Shown here piece after piece: positions 9,983 to 24,936 of a stretch of DNA of 29,377 bases. The notes beneath the pieces were generated by a model. It did not search any database and had not been told where the DNA came from. It was given only the letters and a program-made list of their open reading frames with translations. The DNA lies in NCBI GenBank assembly GCA_028717605.1, contig JAQUNM010000001.1, positions 1 through 29,377 of the forward strand, in the 5' to 3' direction. The stretch's first letter is position 1, and each line of letters opens with the position of its first letter. The DNA comes from Minisyncoccota bacterium (GTDB lineage Bacteria; Patescibacteriota; Minisyncoccia; Minisyncoccales; GWA2-38-27). Position numbers and translations under genes: made by a program.

Positions 9983-11296
9983 ATGAAAAAAATATATATT
10001 AATCAAACACCAGAATATATCGGTAAAAAAATAACCATATCTGCCTGGATAGACACCAGAAGGGATCATGGTAAAGTTGTCTTTTTAGATTTAAAAGATA
10101 AATCAGGTATTCTGCAAGCAGTAGGTCAATGTTTAGGAAAAGAATTTCAGCCACAATGTGTTATTCAAGTCCAGGGAAAAATTAAACAAAGACCTGAAAA
10201 AATGCAGAATAAAAAACTAGAAACAGGAAAAATAGAACTAGAAATTGAAACAATTAAATTATTAACTGAATCAGAGCCTTTCCCCTTTGATATTAACGAT
10301 AAACTAACTCTACCTATTTTGTTAGACTACAGACCAATTACTTTAAGAAATCCTAAAATTAGAGCTATTTTTAAAATTGAAGAAGGGATTACAGAAAGTT
10401 TTAGGAAAAATATGAGAGCTTTAGATTTTACTGAATTCCATGCTCCGGCCATAGTGCCTTCTACTACTGAAGGAGGAGCTGAGGTTTTCTCTCTTGACTA
10501 TTATAATTCTAAGGCATATTTAGCTCAAAGCCCTCAACTTTATAAACAAATTATGGTTGGAGTATTTGAAAGGGTTTTTACTGTTGCTCATGCATATAGA
10601 GCAGAACCAAGTGTTACTACTCGTCATATTGCCGAATATGTAAGTCTAGACGCAGAAATGGGGTTTATTGATTCTTGGAAAGATATAATGGAGGTTTGTG
10701 AAAAATTGATAAAGAATATTTTAAATGATCTGGAAAAAAATTATAAAAAAGAATTAAAAATATTTTTAGCTACTATACCTGAGATTAAAGGTAAAATTCC
10801 TGTTTTAACTCTACAAGAAGCCTTAGATATTCTGTATAAGTTAACTAAAAAAGATCAGAGAAATGAACCTGATTTAGACCCAGAGGGCGAAAAAGAAATA
10901 TGTCAATATATTAAAGAAAAATATGGATCAGATTTTGTTTTTATCACTCACTTTCCTGTTTCTAAAAGACCCTTTTATACCTTTCCTGATCCGGAAAACC
11001 CTAAATTAACTCTTTCTTTTGATATTTTATGTAGGGGATTAGAAATAGTAACTGGTGGACAAAGAATTAATGATTATAAAAAATTATTAGAAAATATTAA
11101 AAAATGGGGGAATAACCCAGAAACTTTTTCTTTTTATCTTCAAGCTTTTAAATATGGAATGCCACCAGAAGGAGGTTTTGCTTTGGGTTTAGAAAGAATG
11201 GTAAAACAAATTTTGGGACTAGAAAATATTAGAGAGGCTATTCCTTTTCCAAGAGATATGCAAAGAATTGATCAAAGATTATATAAAAATGACTAG
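9983..11296 (+). CDS. aspS: Aspartyl-tRNA synthetase, short archaeal/eukaryal type (no GAD insertion); discriminating vs non-discriminating not determinable
   Basis: OB fold (RDHG..F.DL.D), YLAQSPQLYKQ, YRAE...RH..EY, GGQRI, YGMPPEGGFALGLER, FPRD. Confidence 0.9.
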   Translation: MKKIYINQTPEYIGKKITISAWIDTRRDHGKVVFLDLKDKSGILQAVGQCLGKEFQPQCVIQVQGKIKQRPEKMQNKKLETGKIELEIETIKLLTESEPFPFDINDKLTLPILLDYRPITLRNPKIRAIFKIEEGITESFRKNMRALDFTEFHAPAIVPSTTEGGAEVFSLDYYNSKAYLAQSPQLYKQIMVGVFERVFTVAHAYRAEPSVTTRHIAEYVSLDAEMGFIDSWKDIMEVCEKLIKNILNDLEKNYKKELKIFLATIPEIKGKIPVLTLQEALDILYKLTKKDQRNEPDLDPEGEKEICQYIKEKYGSDFVFITHFPVSKRPFYTFPDPENPKLTLSFDILCRGLEIVTGGQRINDYKKLLENIKKWGNNPETFSFYLQAFKYGMPPEGGFALGLERMVKQILGLENIREAIPFPRDMQRIDQRLYKND

Positions 11297-16689: not shown

Positions 16690-17130
16690 ATGGATCATAA
16701 AAAAGATTTAAAAAAAATAGAGTTATTAATTAATCAACATTTATATACTATTTGTTCGGTGATTACCATTTTAGTAATGTTGATGTTTTTAGTTGAATTT
16801 TTCAGTAAAGGAATGTTTAATTTATACAAAATAGAACTTTTTTATTTAGGGGTTTTATTAATTTATTCTTTTCATAAAGAATTAATAAGATGTATCGGTT
16901 GTAAAAAACTTGATAAACAAGGTGAAAATTTTGTTTATATTTGGATAGTTTTAACTTTAAGTTTATATATAGTTAATTTTATTAGTCGAGACTTTTTCAC
17001 CATAACTGTATACAATGAACCATCTTTGGTTTTAAAAAATATTTCAATTTTAACTTTACAAATTTTAGCTATTTTTATAATTACCAGGGGTATAAAATTT
17101 ATAAAAATCTTTTTAGCAGAAAAAAAATAA
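16690..17130 (+). CDS. Hypothetical multi-pass (about 4 TM) membrane protein
   Basis: Four hydrophobic stretches; packed between murG and lysS. Confidence 0.75.
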   Translation: MDHKKDLKKIELLINQHLYTICSVITILVMLMFLVEFFSKGMFNLYKIELFYLGVLLIYSFHKELIRCIGCKKLDKQGENFVYIWIVLTLSLYIVNFISRDFFTITVYNEPSLVLKNISILTLQILAIFIITRGIKFIKIFLAEKK

Positions 17131-17136
17131 AATATT

Positions 17137-18567
17137 ATGGCAACTATAGACGAAATAAGAAAAAATAGATTAAAAAAATTAGAAAAAATTGAATCAGCAT
17201 ATCCAGTTTTTTATAAAAGAACTCATACTTGTTTTGAAGCCTTAAAAAACAAAACAGGGCAAATTTATGTAACTGGAAGAATTATATCTTTAAGAGAACA
17301 CGGTTCTATAGTTTTTGTTCACATTAAAGACGAAACCGATAAACTTCAACTTGTTTTTAGGAAAAATAGTTTAGGAGAAAAAAGCTTTCAATATTTTTTA
17401 GATTATTTTGATATAGGTGATTTTGTTCAAGCTAAAGGCAAAATGTTTAAAACAAAAAAAGGAGAAAAAACGCTTGATGTTTTAGACTATAAAATTTTAG
17501 CTAAATCGCTCTTACCCTTACCAGAAAAATGGCACGGATTAGAAGATATTGAGCAAAGGTATAGAAAAAGATATTTAGATCTAATTTTCAATAATGAAGT
17601 TCAAGAAAAATTTAGAAAAAGATCAGAAATAATAAAAAATATAAGAAAATTTTTAGAAAATAAAGGGTTTTTAGAAGTAGAAACACCTATTTTACAGCCG
17701 CTTTATGGCGGAGCAACAGCTCGTCCTTTTAAAACTCATTTAAATGCCTTAAATATGGATTTATATTTAAGGATATCCCCAGAACTTTACTTAAAAAGAT
17801 TATTGGTAGGAGGGTTTGAAAAAGTTTTTGAGATAGGAAAATGTTTTAGAAATGAAGGCTTGGATAAAGAACATAATCCTGATTTTACTATGTTAGAATT
17901 TTATTGGGCTTATGCTGATTATAAGGATTTGATGAAATTGACAGAAGAAATGTTTAAAGTTTTATTAAAAAACATATTTAAAAAATTAGAGATTATTTAT
18001 AAAGATAATAAAATAAACTTTAAAACTCCTTGGACAAGAATTGAATTTGTAGATCTTTTCAAAAAATATACAAATATTAATTTAGATGAAATAAATGAAA
18101 GTGCTTTAGCTCAAAAAGCGAAAGAATTAGGAATTTCTGTTAAAAAAGGAGATTATAAGTTTGAAATTGCAGATAATATTTATAAAAAGTATTGTCGTCC
18201 TAAAATTATTCAACCAACTTTTGTTATTCATCATCCTGTCGAATCATCTCCTTTAGCTAAACAATTAGATTCTAAAAAATTAGCTAGATTTCAACTATTA
18301 GTAGGGGGGATGGAAATCATTAATGCTTTTTCGGAATTAAATAATCCTATAGAACAAAAAAGAAAGTTTCAAGAACAAGAAAAAGTTTTTAAAAAGGGAT
18401 TTGAAGAAGCTCAAAGACTAGACGAGGACTATATAGAAGCCTTAGAGTATGGAATGCCCTTGGCAGCTGGTTTTGGTATGGGTATTGATAGATTAGTTGT
18501 TTTACTTACTGATTCTAGTAATTTAAGAGAGGTGATTTTATTTCCAATAATGAAAAATAAAAAATAA
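17137..18567 (+). CDS. lysS: Lysyl-tRNA synthetase, class II
   Basis: LPEKWHGL, RYRKRYLDL, EVETPIL, GGATARPF, LRISPELYLKRL, FRNEG, YGMP..GFGMGIDR. Confidence 0.97.
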   Translation: MATIDEIRKNRLKKLEKIESAYPVFYKRTHTCFEALKNKTGQIYVTGRIISLREHGSIVFVHIKDETDKLQLVFRKNSLGEKSFQYFLDYFDIGDFVQAKGKMFKTKKGEKTLDVLDYKILAKSLLPLPEKWHGLEDIEQRYRKRYLDLIFNNEVQEKFRKRSEIIKNIRKFLENKGFLEVETPILQPLYGGATARPFKTHLNALNMDLYLRISPELYLKRLLVGGFEKVFEIGKCFRNEGLDKEHNPDFTMLEFYWAYADYKDLMKLTEEMFKVLLKNIFKKLEIIYKDNKINFKTPWTRIEFVDLFKKYTNINLDEINESALAQKAKELGISVKKGDYKFEIADNIYKKYCRPKIIQPTFVIHHPVESSPLAKQLDSKKLARFQLLVGGMEIINAFSELNNPIEQKRKFQEQEKVFKKGFEEAQRLDEDYIEALEYGMPLAAGFGMGIDRLVVLLTDSSNLREVILFPIMKNKK

Positions 18568-18570
18568 AAT

Positions 18571-19794
18571 ATGTTAGATATAAAATTTATTAGAGAAAAC
18601 AAAGAATTAATTAAAAAAGCTATTTTTCATAAAAATATTGACTTAGATTTAGAAAAATTGCTTTTATTAGATAGAAAAAGAAGAAACCTTATCCAAGAAG
18701 TTGAAAAATTAAAGTCAGAACAGAAAAAGACAAAAGATATTAAAAAAGCAAAAGGAATTAAAGAAAAAATTAAAAAATTATTACCAGAAAATCAAAAGAT
18801 TGAGAAAGAATACCAAGAATTAATGCTTTTGGTACCTAATCTTTATTCAGAAGACACACCAATAGGTAAGGATGAATCTTCTAATAAAGAAATTCTAAGG
18901 TGGGGGAAGATACCTGTTTTTGATTTTCCGATCAAAAATCACATAGAATTAGGTAAAAATTTAGACTTAATTGATTTAGAAAAAGGAACTAAAACAAGTG
19001 GTTTTAGAGGTTATTATTTGAAAAACGAATTAGCCCTTATTTCTATGGCTTTAATTTGGCACACTATTTCTGTTATGAGAAAGAAAGGATTCTCTTTTAT
19101 GATTCCTCCTACTATTTTAAAGGAATTTGCTTTAATAGGTAGTGGTCATTTTCCATTTGGACAAAAGGAGATATACAAAATAAATGAAAGCTCATATTTA
19201 GCTGGAACCTCAGAACCTTCTTTGTTGGCATATTTTTCAGATATGATTTTAGAAAATCTTCCAATAAAAGTTTTCGCTTTTTCTCAGTGTTACAGATCAG
19301 AGGCAGGAAGTTATGGAAAAGATACTAAGGGTTTATATAGAAAACACGAATTTATGAAAGTAGAACAAGTTGTTTTGTGCAAAAATAATCTAAAAGAATC
19401 TAATTATTGGTTAGAAGAAATGAGAAAGAATTCAGAAGAAATTTTACAAAGCCTAGAGCTTCCTTACAGAGTAATTCAAATCTGTACTGGAGATATGGGA
19501 GCTGGCAAATACAAAATGTATGACATTGAAACCTGGATGCCTTCTAGAAATTCTTATGGAGAAACCCATTCGGATTCTAATTTAACTGATTGGCAAGCAA
19601 GAAGACTAAATATTAAAGACAAAGATAAAAATTTTGTTTATACTTTAAACAACACAGTTATTGCCTTACCTAGAATATTAATTTCTATTTTAGAGAATTA
19701 TCAAGAAAAAGACGGCTCAATAAAAATACCAAAAGTTTTACAGACATATTTAGGTTTTAAAAAAATTAATGTTAAAAAAACAAATTCGAATTAA
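18571..19794 (+). CDS. serS: Seryl-tRNA synthetase
   Basis: MLDIKFIREN, coiled-coil arm, YLAGTSE, CYRSEAG, HEFMKVE, DIETWMP, TLNNT. Confidence 0.96.
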   Translation: MLDIKFIRENKELIKKAIFHKNIDLDLEKLLLLDRKRRNLIQEVEKLKSEQKKTKDIKKAKGIKEKIKKLLPENQKIEKEYQELMLLVPNLYSEDTPIGKDESSNKEILRWGKIPVFDFPIKNHIELGKNLDLIDLEKGTKTSGFRGYYLKNELALISMALIWHTISVMRKKGFSFMIPPTILKEFALIGSGHFPFGQKEIYKINESSYLAGTSEPSLLAYFSDMILENLPIKVFAFSQCYRSEAGSYGKDTKGLYRKHEFMKVEQVVLCKNNLKESNYWLEEMRKNSEEILQSLELPYRVIQICTGDMGAGKYKMYDIETWMPSRNSYGETHSDSNLTDWQARRLNIKDKDKNFVYTLNNTVIALPRILISILENYQEKDGSIKIPKVLQTYLGFKKINVKKTNSN

Positions 19795-20467
19795 AAACTT
19801 AAACATTAATTATAGGGTTTCTGGTCAAGGAAAACCTTTTTTAATTTTACATGGTTGGGGCTCTAACTCTGAAAAATGGGAAAAAGTAATTAATTTATTA
19901 TCTTTTAAATTCCAAGTATTTGCTCCTGACTTACCTGGTTTTGGAGAGTCAGAGGTAATGAAAGATCCTTGGCAGATTAAAGATTTTATTGATTTTTTAA
20001 AAGAATTTGTTGAAAAGCTAGATCTCAAAAATTTCTATCTTTTGGGTCATTCTTTTGGCGGATCATTGGCTTTAAAATATAATTCAGAATTTAAGGTTAA
20101 TAAATTATTTTTAGTGGCTCCTTCTTTAGTAAGAAAAAATACACTAAAAAAAAGAATATTCTCTTTAAAAATACCTTGTCCATTTTTTTGTAAAAAAATT
20201 ATCTATGCATTATTTTTAAAAAACACTGACTATCCTTTGTACAGGGGGGCAATGAAAGAAACCTTAAAAAACGTTTTAATAGATCTATCCCACTTAAAAC
20301 CCTTATCAGAAACAATTCTAATCTGGGGAAAAAAAGATAAAATTACTCCTTTTTCTAATTCTAAATTAATTAAAAAAGATGTTTTAGAAACTATTCCTCA
20401 AGCAGGTCATGCTATAGAGATAGATACACCTGATTTATTAGTAGAAAAAATATTAAATAATCTATGA
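19769..20467 (+). CDS. Alpha/beta-fold hydrolase
   Basis: LHGWG, PDLPGFG, GHSFGG nucleophile elbow, WGKKD, C-terminal GH. Confidence 0.92.
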   Translation: MLKKQIRIKNLNINYRVSGQGKPFLILHGWGSNSEKWEKVINLLSFKFQVFAPDLPGFGESEVMKDPWQIKDFIDFLKEFVEKLDLKNFYLLGHSFGGSLALKYNSEFKVNKLFLVAPSLVRKNTLKKRIFSLKIPCPFFCKKIIYALFLKNTDYPLYRGAMKETLKNVLIDLSHLKPLSETILIWGKKDKITPFSNSKLIKKDVLETIPQAGHAIEIDTPDLLVEKILNNL

Positions 20468-22002
20468 TTTATTTTTTAACCCTTTTTTGGTCTTTAAAGG
20501 AAATTCAATCAGCTTTATTTTATCTTCATTTGTGCCAACTAAAAGAATATCATTTAGGAAGGTTTTTAGTTCATTTTAAAACTAGTCAAGGAAAATCATT
20601 AATTTTAAATAAATTAATTTTATTAAAAATTATTATTCTTTTTTTTCTTTTAACAAACTTTTGGTCAGGCTTAGCAATTTTTCTCTTGTTTTTATTATAT
20701 CTAGTTGAATTTTTAAATATAGCTTTTAAAATCATTCAAGATAGATTAATAAAACCTGTTTTCACTAAAAAAGTTTTATTCTTAATTTTCGTTCTATTTT
20801 TAATTATTTTTTCTTATTTAATTGTTTTACTTTTATCTATAGAAAGAATATATTTACCCTTATTGATAGTAGACATTTTATCTCCTATATTGTTTCCTCT
20901 CTTAGTTTTTATTTTACAACCTTTAACTATTTTAGAAAGAAAGAGAATATTAGAAAAAGCCACTAAAAAAAGACAAAGCTGTAAAAATTTATTAGTAATT
21001 GGAATTACTGGTAGTTATGGGAAAACAACAACCAAAGAATTTCTAGCAATTATTTTGTCTCAAAAATTTAATGTTTTGAAAACCCAGAATCATAAAAACT
21101 CAGAAATGGGAATCTCTCAAACGATTTTAGAAGAATTAAATAATGATCACGAAATTTTTATTGGTGAAATGGCTGCTTATAATAAAGGGGGGATTAAATT
21201 ATTAGCTGATATTATTCATCCTAAAATAGGAATAATAACTGGTATAAACGAACAGCATTTAGCTCTTTTTGGTTCCATGGAAAATTTAATTCAAGCTGAA
21301 GGGGGGAAAGAATTATTAGAGTATGTTGATATTGCTTTCTTTAATGGTAATGATAAATTGTGTCAAAAAGTTTATGAAGAGACAAAAATTAAGAAAAAAT
21401 TATGCTCTATTAAAAAAGAGTCTGATTTTTGGATTTCCGATTATAAAACAGACTTAAATTATATTTATTGCACTATTGAAAACAAAGAATCGATTAATTT
21501 AAAAATAAAAGCACACGGCGTTCATAATCTTTCTAATTTATTATTAGCCATAGCTGTAGCAAGGTATTTAGATATGGATTGGGAAGAAATTAAAAAGGGT
21601 TGTTTAAAAATTGATCCAGAAATGACAGGTATAAAAACCTATAAAAGTAAACATGGTTTTTTAATTATTGATTCTTCTTATTCAGCTAATCCAACCGGAG
21701 TTTTAGCTGATTTAAAATATTTAAGTTTATATTCCGGAAAAAAGGTTATTGTTATGCCATGTTTAATAGAATTAGGATCAGCTAGCAAAAAAATACATGA
21801 AAAAATAGGAAGAAAAATAGACGAAGTTTGTGATTTGGCTATTATAACTACTCCAGATAATTTTAAAGATCTAAATTCAAAAAAAGCTATTTATGTTCAA
21901 AAACCAAATCAAATAATTAGTAAGTTAAAAAGTTTTTGTTCTGGAAAAGATACGGTTCTAATAGAGGGTAGGATTAAGAAAGAAATAATTAAAAAATTAT
22001 GA
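20464..22002 (+). CDS. murF: MurF-like Mur ligase with an N-terminal multi-TM domain
   Basis: About 150-aa hydrophobic N-terminus; GITGSYGKTTTK; DSSYSANP; IELG; HEKIG. Confidence 0.75.
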   Translation: MIYFLTLFWSLKEIQSALFYLHLCQLKEYHLGRFLVHFKTSQGKSLILNKLILLKIIILFFLLTNFWSGLAIFLLFLLYLVEFLNIAFKIIQDRLIKPVFTKKVLFLIFVLFLIIFSYLIVLLLSIERIYLPLLIVDILSPILFPLLVFILQPLTILERKRILEKATKKRQSCKNLLVIGITGSYGKTTTKEFLAIILSQKFNVLKTQNHKNSEMGISQTILEELNNDHEIFIGEMAAYNKGGIKLLADIIHPKIGIITGINEQHLALFGSMENLIQAEGGKELLEYVDIAFFNGNDKLCQKVYEETKIKKKLCSIKKESDFWISDYKTDLNYIYCTIENKESINLKIKAHGVHNLSNLLLAIAVARYLDMDWEEIKKGCLKIDPEMTGIKTYKSKHGFLIIDSSYSANPTGVLADLKYLSLYSGKKVIVMPCLIELGSASKKIHEKIGRKIDEVCDLAIITTPDNFKDLNSKKAIYVQKPNQIISKLKSFCSGKDTVLIEGRIKKEIIKKL

Positions 22003-23198
22003 TTTCAATATCCATTTCTCCAAACATAGAAAAAGATGACCTTTTTTTAACACTTAGATTAATTTTCCAACCTTCTAAGTGGAAAAAAGGTGATAAAGAA
22101 GAAGAACTTAAAGGGTTAATAAAAGAATATTTTAATATTCCTTATGTTTCTTTGTTTAATAGTGGCAGATCTGCTTTATATTGTTTATTAAGGGCTTTTA
22201 ATTTAAAAAAAAAGGACGAGGTTTTAATCCAAGCTTTTACTTGTAATGCTTTAGTTAATCCTATTTTATGGAATAATCTTACTCCAGTATATGTGGATAT
22301 TGACAGTAATTTAAATATTGATCCTTTGGACTTAAGAAAAAAAATAACAACTAATTCTAAGATATTAATTGTCCAGCATACTTTTGGTAATCCCTGTAAA
22401 ATGGAAGAAATCTTAAAGGTTGTTAAAGAAAATAATTTAATTTTAATAGAAGATTGTGCTCATTCTCTGGGGGCTGAATATAAGGGACAAAAAATAGGTA
22501 CTTTTGGTAAGGCTAGTTTTTTAAGTTTTTCTAGAGACAAGGTTATTTCTTCTGTTTACGGAGGAGCTATTCTTATTAAAGACAAAGAATTAGCAGAAAA
22601 AATATTAGAATTAGATTATCCTTCTAATTTTTGGACTTTTCAGCAACTTTTACATCCCTTATTAATTAAATTAATTATCCCTTGTTATAATTTTTTAGGT
22701 AAAGCTTTGTTAATTTTTTTTCAAAGACTCCATATTCTTTCTAAGGCTGTTTCATACGAAGAAAAACAAGGTAAAAAACCAAAATATTTTCCTAAAAAAA
22801 TGCCAAATGCTATAGCCTGTTTAGCTTGTAATCAATTCAAAAAACTTGATAAATTCTATTTACATAGAAAAAAAATATCAGAAATATATTCAAAAGAACT
22901 AGGGGTTAGCTACCTAGAAAAAGACGTTAAAAAAACTTATTTAAGATTTATTTTTTTCCACGAAAAAGCCCATGAAATTATTAGAAAATTTTGGAAAAGA
23001 AATATTTTAATAGGGGATTGGTATACCAGTCCTATCGCTCCCCCCGACACAAATTTAGAAAGAATGAAGTATAAATTAGGTTCTTGTAAAAAAGCAGAAA
23101 AATATGCTAAAAAAACCTTAAATCTACCCACTCATATTAATATTTCTAAAAAACAGGCTAAGTATATTGTTTCTATTTTAAGAGAATTAATTAAATAA
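21999..23198 (+). CDS. DegT/DnrJ/EryC1/StrS-family PLP aminotransferase
   Basis: NSGRSAL, QHTFG, IEDCAHSLG, SFSRDK (PLP lysine), LNLPTH. Confidence 0.9.
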   Translation: MISISISPNIEKDDLFLTLRLIFQPSKWKKGDKEEELKGLIKEYFNIPYVSLFNSGRSALYCLLRAFNLKKKDEVLIQAFTCNALVNPILWNNLTPVYVDIDSNLNIDPLDLRKKITTNSKILIVQHTFGNPCKMEEILKVVKENNLILIEDCAHSLGAEYKGQKIGTFGKASFLSFSRDKVISSVYGGAILIKDKELAEKILELDYPSNFWTFQQLLHPLLIKLIIPCYNFLGKALLIFFQRLHILSKAVSYEEKQGKKPKYFPKKMPNAIACLACNQFKKLDKFYLHRKKISEIYSKELGVSYLEKDVKKTYLRFIFFHEKAHEIIRKFWKRNILIGDWYTSPIAPPDTNLERMKYKLGSCKKAEKYAKKTLNLPTHINISKKQAKYIVSILRELIK

Positions 23199-23213
23199 AG
23201 ATATAATAAGTTA

Positions 23214-24200
23214 ATGCAAATTAAAGAAATAAATAGTAAAAAACAATGGGAGGACTTTTTATTTTTAACGGAAGAAAAAACCTTTTTACATTCTTGGAAT
23301 TGGGGTGAATTTCAAAAAAAACAGGGGAACAAAATATGGCGGATTGGTTTTTTTGACCCAAAGTTAAAAGGAGTGGCTTTAATAGTTAAAATACAAGCCA
23401 AAAGAGGAACTTTTTTATTCATTCCTCACGGCCCGGTTGTATTAAAGGAAAAAAAAATTATTTTTGAATCATTAAAAAAATATCTTAAAAAATTAGATAA
23501 GGTAAGTTTTGCTAGAATTGCTTTTGTTTGGGAAAAAGATAGCTTTTCTTCAAGCTTGAAAAATTCTCCAATTCATATCCACCCAGAAGAAACTTGGGAG
23601 TTAGACTTAACTACTAAAGACTTGTTGGGTGAAATGAGAAAAACTACCAGATATTTAATAAAACAAGGATTAAAAAACCCTGATATCCAGATAGAAAAGA
23701 GCAGTGATTTAAAATTATTTAATGATCTTTATTTAAAAACAGCAAAAAGGCATAATTTTATTCCTTTTTCTTATAAATATCTTTTAGATCAATTTGAATT
23801 ATTCTCTCGCGACAATCAAATATCTCTATATTTGGGTAAATACCAGGGAGAAATTGTCTCCGGAGCCATAATTGTTTTTTGGCAAAATACTGCTTTTTAT
23901 CATCATGGAGCTTCTTTATCATGTAAAGCCCCTGTTTCTTATATACTCCAATGGAAGGCTATTGAAGAAGCTATTAAAAGAAATTGTAAAAAATATAATT
24001 TTTGGGGAATTGCCCCTGATATACAAAACAAAGAAGACTTAAAAAAATCTTCTCATCCTTGGGCTGGGTTAACCTTATTCAAAATGGGTTTTGGGGGTTA
24101 TAAAAAAGAATATATAAAAACTAAAGATTTAATATTTTCTCCTCAATATTATCTAACTTATTTTTTTGAAAAATTAAGAAAGAAAAAAAGACATCTATAA
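23214..24200 (+). CDS. FemABX-family aminoacyl-tRNA-dependent peptidoglycan bridge transferase
   Basis: FLHSWNWGEF, IPHGP, EMRKTTRYLI, YHHGAS, LQWKAIEEA, YNFWGI, FKMGFGG. Confidence 0.9.
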   Translation: MQIKEINSKKQWEDFLFLTEEKTFLHSWNWGEFQKKQGNKIWRIGFFDPKLKGVALIVKIQAKRGTFLFIPHGPVVLKEKKIIFESLKKYLKKLDKVSFARIAFVWEKDSFSSSLKNSPIHIHPEETWELDLTTKDLLGEMRKTTRYLIKQGLKNPDIQIEKSSDLKLFNDLYLKTAKRHNFIPFSYKYLLDQFELFSRDNQISLYLGKYQGEIVSGAIIVFWQNTAFYHHGASLSCKAPVSYILQWKAIEEAIKRNCKKYNFWGIAPDIQNKEDLKKSSHPWAGLTLFKMGFGGYKKEYIKTKDLIFSPQYYLTYFFEKLRKKKRHL

Positions 24201-24892
24201 TGAAAAGAAAGAAATATAAGGCTAGAAAAAAGTTTCCTTTTTTATTTATATTAAAAATTACTTTATTTTTTATTATATTTTATTTTCTATTTTTTTCTAA
24301 TTTTTTTGAATTAAAGAAAATTAAAGCTGATTCTCTTGTCTTAGAAGTTGTTAAAAATAATATTACTAGAGAAATAGGTTTTTTAAAAACAAATAACATT
24401 TTTTTATTAGATATAAAAAAAGCAGATGAAAAATTATCTGAAATAATAGAAATAGAAAAATTTTCAATTAAAAGAAAACTCCCTCATACTTTAATAGTTA
24501 ATATAGAAAAAAGAAAAGAAACTTTTATTTGTTGTTCTCAAGATAGGTGTTTTAAAGTTGATAAAAACGGGATTGCATTTGAGCAAACGAACAAGACTGG
24601 TTATATTAGTTGTTCCTTATCAGAGATAGGGAATAAAGTCATGGATGAAAAAATAGTTACAGACATTCTGAAAATTCAAAAAGATTTAAAAAGCTTTTTC
24701 GGTGAATTATCGTTTCAAAACAATTCTTTAATTTTAGAAACGAATCAAGGTTGGCGAATTTTTTTTAACACCGAAGACAATATTGAAAAACAAATTGCTA
24801 GATTGTTCAAGGTTCTTGAAAAAACAATAAAAGACCACAGTCTGCTTGATTATATTGATTTAAGATACGAAGAAACAATCTATTTTAAATAG
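24200..24892 (+). CDS. ftsQ: Cell division protein FtsQ/DivIB
   Basis: Basic N-terminus, TM helix, POTRA-like region (RKLPHTL), C-terminal YIDLRY; TAATG overlap. Confidence 0.8.
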   Translation: MKRKKYKARKKFPFLFILKITLFFIIFYFLFFSNFFELKKIKADSLVLEVVKNNITREIGFLKTNNIFLLDIKKADEKLSEIIEIEKFSIKRKLPHTLIVNIEKRKETFICCSQDRCFKVDKNGIAFEQTNKTGYISCSLSEIGNKVMDEKIVTDILKIQKDLKSFFGELSFQNNSLILETNQGWRIFFNTEDNIEKQIARLFKVLEKTIKDHSLLDYIDLRYEETIYFK

Positions 24893-24936
24893 TTATCAGT
24901 CAAGGGTCTTGACTGCTAATTTTAATTTGCTATAAT
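24893..24936 (+). promoter_or_regulatory. Variant CIRCE operator overlapping the hrcA promoter
   Basis: TTATCAGTC-N9-GACTGCTAA (24893-24919) versus canonical TTAGCACTC-N9-GAGTGCTAA; TTGACT (24909-24914), 16 nt, TGc-TATAAT (24928-24936). Confidence 0.85.

Follow-up and report, generated by a model that had tools for sequence, protein, structure and literature searches.

How does a bacterium finish the stem peptide of its peptidoglycan when its MurF ligase carries a membrane domain in place of the soluble N-terminal one and no D-Ala-D-Ala ligase (Ddl) is recognizable in its genome? The question arises from a 29,377-nucleotide stretch of DNA (the window; contig JAQUNM010000001.1 of assembly GCA_028717605.1, positions 1 to 29,377) from a Minisyncoccota bacterium, a member of the Candidate Phyla Radiation (CPR, Patescibacteria). 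The source genome is 535 kb in size and 97.9% complete, and the G+C content of the window is ∼ 27%. Four genes on the forward strand are at issue: an α/β-fold serine hydrolase (19769–20467; 232 aa, cytoplasmic, Pfam Abhydrolase_1 8e-26), a 512-aa MurF ligase (20464–22002), a divergent DegT-fold pyridoxal 5′-phosphate (PLP) enzyme of 399 aa (21999–23198) and a FemX-like aminoacyl-tRNA-dependent transferase of 328 aa (23214–24200). The original prediction, made from the letters of this DNA, had proposed that they form an undescribed peptidoglycan-tailoring pathway. The linkage that it described is correct in every coordinate when read directly from the sequence: the hydrolase stop and the murF start share an ATGA overlap at 20464, as do murF and degT at 21999, degT and fem are separated by 15 nucleotides (23199–23213) and fem meets ftsQ in a TAATG junction at 24198–24202. 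We interpret the locus as the stem-peptide-finishing operon of a CPR bacterium, built around a distinct kind of MurF (type B, defined below).

The identification of the ligase as the organism's only MurF is strongly supported. Its core (20986–22002), comprising the central ATP-binding and C-terminal domains, matches Mur_ligase_M (PF08245, 3e-30) and Mur_ligase_C (PF02875, 3e-9), carries the P-loop GSYGKTT at residue 183 and aligns with the MurF structures 3ZL8 and 4QDI (E 2e-28). TIGR01143 (MurF) is by far the best Mur family, with 217.9 bits against 72 for murC, the next; the score stays below the curated cut-off of 288.6 bits because the profile match begins only at position 62. There are exactly four Mur ligases in the genome (murC, murD, murE on contig C18, and this one), and the membrane-anchored protein must therefore be the organism's MurF. 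The second, soluble murF whose existence the original prediction had raised is not present, and the murE that it missed in the window lies on contig C18.

Residues 1–174 (20464–20985) give no match to PF01225, the soluble N-terminal domain 1, and consist instead of membrane helices. Hydropathy analysis gives four strong peaks (residues 46–64, 70–88, 104–122 and 133–151) in addition to a short hydrophobic N-terminus, and the domain holds a charged, cytoplasmic HxLQxxxY/RF motif (LHLCQLKEYHLGRF). Hydropathy and sequence thus confirm the multi-helix N-terminus noticed originally, as they do the unusual motifs HKNSEMG, MPCLIELG and IEGR, which are present here and invariant within the family. Full-length homologs number in the thousands. 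The HxLQxxxY motif is kept in CPR and in homologs from Bacillota, Bacteroidales, Chloroflexota, Poribacteria and Hyphomicrobiaceae, and the N-termini of non-CPR members share the signature HxLQxxxY...R[FY]xxW. We take it as shown, or at least strongly supported, that a membrane domain, homologous across many phyla, stands in place of the soluble N-domain of MurF.

Two kinds of MurF occur in the CPR class to which the organism belongs: type A, of ∼ 430 aa, and type B, of 490–590 aa, in which the profile match starts at position 58–72. Type B itself has two subfamilies, the multi-helix form of the window and a ∼ 476-aa form with the same LQxxEY motif. Both are always preceded by an α/β hydrolase and have P[GC]L[VI]E[ML]G for GDMxELG and N[TS] for NN; the 476-aa form is then followed by a Ddl that passes the NCBI curated cut-offs for D-Ala-D-Ala ligase. 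The MurF of the window bears all of these type B marks, with its N-terminal membrane helices, HxLQxxxY...R[FY], P[GC]L[VI]E[ML]G and upstream hydrolase. A scan of species-representative genomes across phyla, from which the best 80 loci were fetched, recovered a hydrolase–membrane-anchored MurF–Ddl module in most of these 80. Its hosts include other CPR lineages, Clostridia, Bacilli (among them the isolate Pseudalkalibacillus sp. R45), Erysipelotrichaceae, Bacteroidales, Chloroflexota, Poribacteria, where the module is placed between murE and mraY, Spirochaetes and Hyphomicrobiaceae. The membrane-anchored form is the best MurF match in four of five such genomes checked, the exception being a Muribaculaceae genome in which it comes second to an 833-aa MurF-Alr-type frame. 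Type B appears to be the housekeeping MurF in some phyla.

In the original prediction the membrane anchor and the departures from the usual MurF motifs were listed in favour of non-standard wall chemistry. They do not mark a new substrate or new chemistry, because the same MurF type precedes a genuine ddl in many phyla; as a mark of lost D-Ala-D-Ala binding the motif changes were likewise rejected, being common to the Ddl-linked relatives. These sequence comparisons lead us to regard anchor, hydrolase and altered motifs as probably parts of a MurF architecture of ordinary function, one that is apparently undescribed.

Three further observations concern Mur ligases of this group. In the Muribaculaceae genome (G496 C25:50893-52167) the 833-aa frame matches the whole MurF profile and is probably the MurF′-Alr chimera of Bacteroidota (PMC13726279); beside it stands the membrane-anchored type B MurF, which may be the working MurF. 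Several genomes of the class carry both MurF types, and at one locus (L079, G200 C34) hydrolase, type B MurF and type A MurF adjoin. The MurE of our organism (G000 contig C18, L001:976-2196, minus strand) has 406 aa and is devoid of the usual N-terminal domain 1: its profile match starts at about position 88 and only ∼ 34 residues precede the P-loop. Such short MurE proteins are common in the class and are often preceded by fem. Since neither MurF nor this MurE has domain 1, both late Mur ligases lack the canonical UDP-binding N-domain.

The hydrolase has a complete triad (GHS95FG elbow, D190 and H214) that is 100% conserved in 56 orthologs, and its gene immediately precedes type B murF at almost every locus of the order, the class and other phyla. 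There is strong support for its being a Ser-Asp-His partner, predicted to be catalytically intact, that always travels with type B MurF. An Atlas search with the hydrolase gave nothing specific. Its supposed action in a tailoring step on lipid-linked precursor is not borne out, as it partners type B MurF with or without DegT and Fem.

What is special to the window and to most of its order is that ddl is replaced by degT-fem. The order was sampled with 61 genomes, each from a different family, from which ∼ 50 loci were fetched; the dominant gene order among them is lysS-serS-hyd-TM-murF-degT-fem-ftsQ (hyd, hydrolase; TM-murF, membrane-anchored murF). Full-length orthologs of the DegT-like protein (48–60% identity) occur in 42 of the 61 genomes and adjoin MurF wherever the contig allows, while the remaining genomes hold only ordinary DegT paralogs. 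This count overturned an impression gained from two Nealsonbacteria-like loci, that degT is a local insert. Among representatives at 50% identity there are five DegT::Fem fusions and three MurF::DegT fusions, plus a 948-aa frame in G036. These natural fusions indicate that MurF, the DegT-like enzyme and Fem work together, and we consider physical and functional coupling of the latter two to MurF strongly supported. One fusion of a transglutaminase core to DegT (P0153, 659 aa) hints at a link to peptide cross-linking or cleavage.

Compactness could in principle explain such neighbours. In CPR genomes the genes are tightly packed and often overlap, the block here also has aminoacyl-tRNA synthetase genes scattered through it, and the four genes might be unrelated housekeeping genes without special coupling. 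However, dozens of families keep their order, natural fusions of three kinds occur and the distribution relative to Ddl and Alr (alanine racemase) is strongly non-random; the fusions and the conserved synteny already contradict such a view, which we regard as very improbable. The notion of a conserved functional unit has therefore survived. The original prediction was staked on both the conservation of the hydrolase and DegT genes beside the ligase and the ligase being something other than an ordinary MurF: the first part holds, but the ligase appears to be an ordinary MurF for its lineage.

The transferase is a convincing member of the Fem family (PF02388, 82 bits against a cut-off of 24; 4e-23). 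Its structural model is a double GNAT fold devoid of the coiled-coil arm, with a TM-score of 0.78 to the FemX structures 6SNR and 1NE9, and the family profile matches Staphylococcus aureus FemX (6SNR) at 4.9e-25. F289-K290, invariant in 27 orthologs, align with the FK of 4II9, that is, with F304-K305, the catalytic pair of Weissella viridescens FemX (PMC12945691). The MurE on contig C18 carries EDPY at the DNPR position. DNPR is the mark of a MurE that adds meso-diaminopimelate, and its replacement makes an L-Lys acceptor plausible. The acceptor of Fem may be the side-chain amine of stem residue 3, which accords with a MurE lacking DNPR, or just as well a free amino acid. In Ddl-positive genomes of the class, 13 of 20 loci have fem immediately 5′ of a short murE, where a bridge-forming FemX would be expected. 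In the Fem tree the cassette proteins group with those encoded right after TM-murF without DegT in a single, well-supported clade; the MurE-linked Fems fall outside it, and genomes with both kinds exist.

We tentatively favour a reading in which the enzymes hold conventional roles, MurF adding the terminal dipeptide, Fem branching L-Lys, the DegT-like enzyme tailoring the precursor and the dipeptide being scavenged or supplied by a further enzyme. At the cytoplasmic face of the membrane MurF would extend UDP-MurNAc-L-Ala-D-Glu-L-Lys by D-Ala-D-Ala or a closely similar dipeptide. The FemX-like enzyme would then transfer a tRNA-borne residue to the ε-amine of L-Lys as the first residue of a bridge, and the PLP enzyme might act on a free amine of the precursor, for example by epimerizing or transaminating the residue newly attached by Fem. 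The hydrolase may serve MurF as an accessory or proofreading partner. The dipeptide would be taken up or made by an enzyme beyond those recognized, as in the third or so of CPR genomes that have neither Ddl nor cassette. The sister subfamilies and homologs that adjoin a genuine Ddl suggest that MurF adds Ddl-made D-Ala-D-Ala, yet the genome has no Ddl that we could find.

In the 97.9%-complete assembly ddl was not found with PF07478, nor with phmmer and four real Ddl queries at E ≤ 10; its absence from the window, noted originally, thus extends to the assembly. Alr and Dat (D-amino-acid transaminase) were not found there either (PF01168, PF01063). Weak PF07478 matches of ∼ 515 aa were rejected as Ddl substitutes, since they are biotin carboxylase. 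The rest of the wall pathway is present, with murA, murB, murI, three penicillin-binding protein transpeptidases and an S11 DD-carboxypeptidase. With Ddl, Alr and Dat not found in the genome, non-standard wall chemistry, as supposed in the original prediction, may still hold.

These absences, in a genome that has penicillin-binding proteins and a DD-carboxypeptidase but in which no known D-Ala route was found, bring in a second reading, possible though in our view doubtful, in which DegT and Fem substitute for the Alr/Ddl branch. Fem would make the dipeptide for MurF from an aminoacyl-tRNA (e.g. Ala- or Gly-tRNA) and a free amino acid, the DegT-like enzyme would set the stereochemistry by N-terminal epimerization or D-specific transamination, and the hydrolase would edit wrong products. 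Fem-like enzymes have a precedent for free dipeptides in DhpH-C, which makes Leu-Ala(P) from Leu-tRNA (PMC12945691). The fusions described above and the separate clade of the cassette Fems also speak for the substitution, as does the gene order, hyd-murF-ddl with type B murF in many phyla and in CPR against hyd-murF-degT-fem here: degT-fem occupies the slot where relatives keep ddl or alr-ddl. The exchange is seen even within single families. In family f185 one genome has lysS-serS-alr-ddl-ftsQ (G298) and another serS-x-degT-fem-ftsQ (G318), and families f218 and f135, like the order of the window, alternate between the two states. One further genome (G424) has a single operon murF-hyd-degT-fem-x-alr and no Ddl.

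The distribution of the genes points the same way. In the order, genuine Ddl is confined to three genomes (G010, G020 and G025), all without the DegT-like gene, and the sole apparent co-occurrence (G052) combines the cassette with a Ddl-like protein that scores below the curated cut-off. We extended the census to 151 genomes of the class and 301 of the phylum, using raw counts that ignore kinship. In the class, standard Ddl is found in 90/151 genomes and the DegT-like gene in 15/151, with no overlap (0/15, against 66% Ddl-positive genomes in the rest). In the phylum, the DegT-like gene is present in 68/301 genomes from ∼ 26 families and genuine Ddl in 99, but the two coincide in only 1/68, compared with 98/233 (42%) of the others. 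True Alr, present in ∼ 106 genomes, follows suit with 4/68 versus ∼ 102/233 (∼ 44%). The Alr anticorrelation is visible only in this phylum sample; within the order, where Alr was found in none of the 61 genomes, Ddl-bearing members included, its absence was rejected as specific to the cassette.

Several observations are hard to reconcile with the substitution. Loci without DegT are scattered inside the cassette Fem clade, from which we deduce that DegT was lost independently at least four times, each time with retention of Fem and without a return of Ddl. The arrangement hyd-TM-murF-fem, lacking both DegT and Ddl, is found in at least seven good genomes, of which one is closed. Such repeated loss is easier to explain for a tailoring step. 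Loss of Ddl does not require the cassette: ∼ 100 of the 233 phylum genomes that lack the DegT-like gene are devoid of any Ddl-like gene as well, and 11 genomes of the class lack Ddl, Fem and DegT yet have a type A MurF. Family f145 has the cassette together with Ddl-like genes (230, 224 and 273 bits) and Alr. A tRNA delivers L-residues or Gly, and we know of no epimerase in the DegT family. Finally, the neglect of kinship weakens the genome counts as an argument.

The conventional reading, which we prefer, has its own difficulties. It leaves the source of D-Ala and D-Ala-D-Ala unexplained in a genome where MurI is present and Ddl, Alr and Dat were not found, and it offers no account of the near-exclusivity of the DegT-like gene with genuine Ddl and Alr or of degT-fem standing in the ddl or alr-ddl slot, also within single families. 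The cassette Fems would not be expected to form a clade of their own, apart from the MurE-linked ones, in genomes some of which carry both. In addition, no DegT-family enzyme is known to us that acts on peptides. The positional swap, the exclusivity and the fusions are better explained by substitution of the Alr/Ddl branch. That the Alr-Ddl route has been displaced in a large share of CPR by a tRNA-dependent Fem plus DegT-like route, docked on a membrane-anchored MurF, we nevertheless consider rather unlikely.

Other Ddl-related arrangements were seen in CPR. A Ddl fusion of ∼ 775–835 aa, in which a full Ddl forms the N-terminal half and a second domain follows, is recurrent (G020 L071:3090-5474, 325 bits; G122, G125, G132, G149, G177, G202 and several phylum genomes). 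Cassette genomes of family f150 (e.g. G320 C10:82909-83913, L113:6898-7932) often encode, away from the cassette, a full-length but divergent ATP-grasp protein of ∼ 350 aa that is Ddl-like and scores only ∼ 135–150 bits, far below the Ddl cut-off. Several closed genomes of family f151 (0.6–0.7 Mb; e.g. G231, L116) have a true alanine racemase and neither a Ddl-like nor a DegT-like gene; D-Ala is apparently made there with no known ligase to join it.

The DegT-like protein matches PF01041 with 211 bits (3e-62), mostly over its N-terminal half. K181, D152 and S176 are invariant in 20 orthologs, and in alignments K181 (SFSRDK) falls on the Lys of 7B0M and QdtB. The structure model (pLDDT 92) is matched by Foldseek to ArnB, PseC and perosamine synthase (E 1e-24, TM-scores 0.76–0.84). 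The remodelled C-terminal half takes in the canonical N-[FY]-R region, and an insertion of ∼ 50 residues forms a family-specific hydrophobic helix (residues 210–243, 34 residues). All equivalogs fall far below their cut-offs, the best being PseC with 152 against 423 bits.

The fold and the PLP residues, which are those of UDP-, GDP- and dTDP-keto-sugar aminotransferases, would allow for a nucleotide-sugar aminotransferase acting on a wall precursor or glycan, with Fem aminoacylating the new sugar amine. UDP-MurNAc derivatives are nucleotide sugars, and Fem-like enzymes acylate non-peptide amines such as streptothrisamine; Sba18 and Sbb17 are among the fold matches of our Fem. However, no gene for a dehydratase or oxidoreductase that would form the keto group was seen in the operon across ∼ 50 loci, the C-terminal half is remodelled and the equivalog scores are low, and two canonical DegT enzymes (433 and 370 bits) are already encoded elsewhere in the genome. 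Nor would it explain why Ddl and Alr tend to be missing or why the protein is fused to MurF. A supply of the Fem-acylated amine by the aminotransferase has a precedent and is here no more than a candidate role, and the aminoacylated glycan envisaged in the original prediction has become its least supported variant; we judge it improbable.

The four genes belong to a co-directional division/cell-wall (dcw) block that comprises, in order, murC, aspS, the S11 DD-carboxypeptidase gene, mraY, murD, ftsW, murG, an orphan open reading frame, lysS, serS, the four genes and ftsQ. For the orphan frame between murG and lysS (16690–17130, 146 aa) neither Pfam nor NCBIfam gives a match. The block also has three aminoacyl-tRNA synthetase genes embedded in it, each present as a single copy: a non-discriminating aspS (9983–11296), lysS (17137–18567) and serS (18571–19794). 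The lysS-serS pair (17137–19794, forward strand) scores above the NCBIfam equivalog cut-offs and was rejected as a pair of specialized paralogs, both being single-copy housekeeping genes; it is kept upstream of murF across the order and beyond, regardless of the genes that follow. The end of serS overlaps the start of the hydrolase gene by 26 nucleotides. ftsQ (24200–24892, forward strand; POTRA_1 in Pfam) is the last gene of the block. Directly 3′ of it lies a hairpin (24897–24915), overlapped by the best promoter-like site (TTGACT-16-TATAAT with a TG extension, 24909–24936), which precedes hrcA-grpE-dnaK-dnaJ. This terminator-like and promoter-like pair (24897–24936) is the only convincing one; within the block, promoter-like matches occur no more often than in shuffled sequence.

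The synthesis of peptidoglycan precursors ranks with the best-mapped bacterial pathways and is a major antibiotic target, D-cycloserine acting on Alr and Ddl and vancomycin binding D-Ala-D-Ala. The locus exposes two gaps in it. The first is a membrane-anchored MurF of many phyla with an obligate serine-hydrolase partner, for which we found no describing paper in the literature. The second is that in nearly a quarter of the sampled CPR genomes a PLP enzyme and a tRNA-dependent transferase have taken the place of Ddl; a literature search for Ddl loss in CPR found no relevant paper. Cassette organisms must either scavenge ready-made D-Ala-D-Ala or have a novel way of producing the end of the stem. 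Whichever holds, it matters for wall construction in episymbiotic ultra-small bacteria, for the drugs to which they are predicted to be susceptible and for the range of reactions that Fem and DegT enzymes catalyse.

Compared with canonical MurF (1GG4, 3ZL8, 4QDI, 4CVK, 2AM1), the enzyme of the window has central and C-terminal domains of ∼ 30% identity and retains the P-loop, NEQHL and DSSYSANP. It differs in having a membrane domain of four to five helices for the soluble N-domain, a hydrolase partner and a genome without Ddl, as well as P-C-L-I-E for G-D-M-x-E, N-S for N-N and E-G-R for K-G-S-R. The cassette Fem shares the double-GNAT fold (TM-score 0.78) and the Phe-Lys pair with FemX of W. 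viridescens (1NE9, 4II9) and FemX and FemA of S. aureus (6SNR, 1LRZ), and is similar in length to the W. viridescens enzyme. Its identity to these is only ∼ 18–20%, and it differs from them in that its clade goes together with type B MurF in Ddl-less genomes and in its frequent fusion to the DegT-like protein. The latter has the fold, PLP lysine, aspartate and phosphate-binding residues of ArnB, PseC, perosamine synthase and QdtB, from which it is set apart by the ∼ 50-residue insertion, the remodelled C-terminal half, the coupling to MurF and Fem and the missing keto-sugar partner.

Other routes to D-residues of the stem peptide are MurD2/MurL, in which L-Glu is added and then epimerized, vancomycin-type MurF2/VanK modules and MurT/GatD. 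Between them they are precedents for a Mur ligase with a dedicated partner enzyme, for epimerization that follows ligation and for altered stem ends being dealt with by a Fem of their own (VanK) or by a MurF paralog. To our knowledge, none of the three uses a DegT-fold enzyme or a membrane-anchored MurF. DhpH of the dehydrophos pathway has a PLP domain at its N-terminus. It thus resembles the cassette in joining a PLP enzyme to an aminoacyl-tRNA-dependent Fem-like transferase, and the product of its Fem-like domain is a free dipeptide formed from an amino-acid analogue (PMC12945691). It differs in belonging to Streptomyces secondary metabolism, in the fold family of its PLP domain and in having no Mur ligase partner.

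As to gene neighbourhood, that of Campylobacter jejuni, where ddl (Cj0798c) lies just upstream of a hydrolase (Cj0796c) and murF (Cj0795c) and the hydrolase may be essential (PMC5530802), looks alike when compared by description only; a language-model neighbour cluster also hints at homology of the two pairs. A close counterpart is the hyd-TM-murF-ddl module of many phyla, which has the same type of MurF, the same hydrolase and the same order up to murF; there a genuine ddl follows, and here degT-fem.

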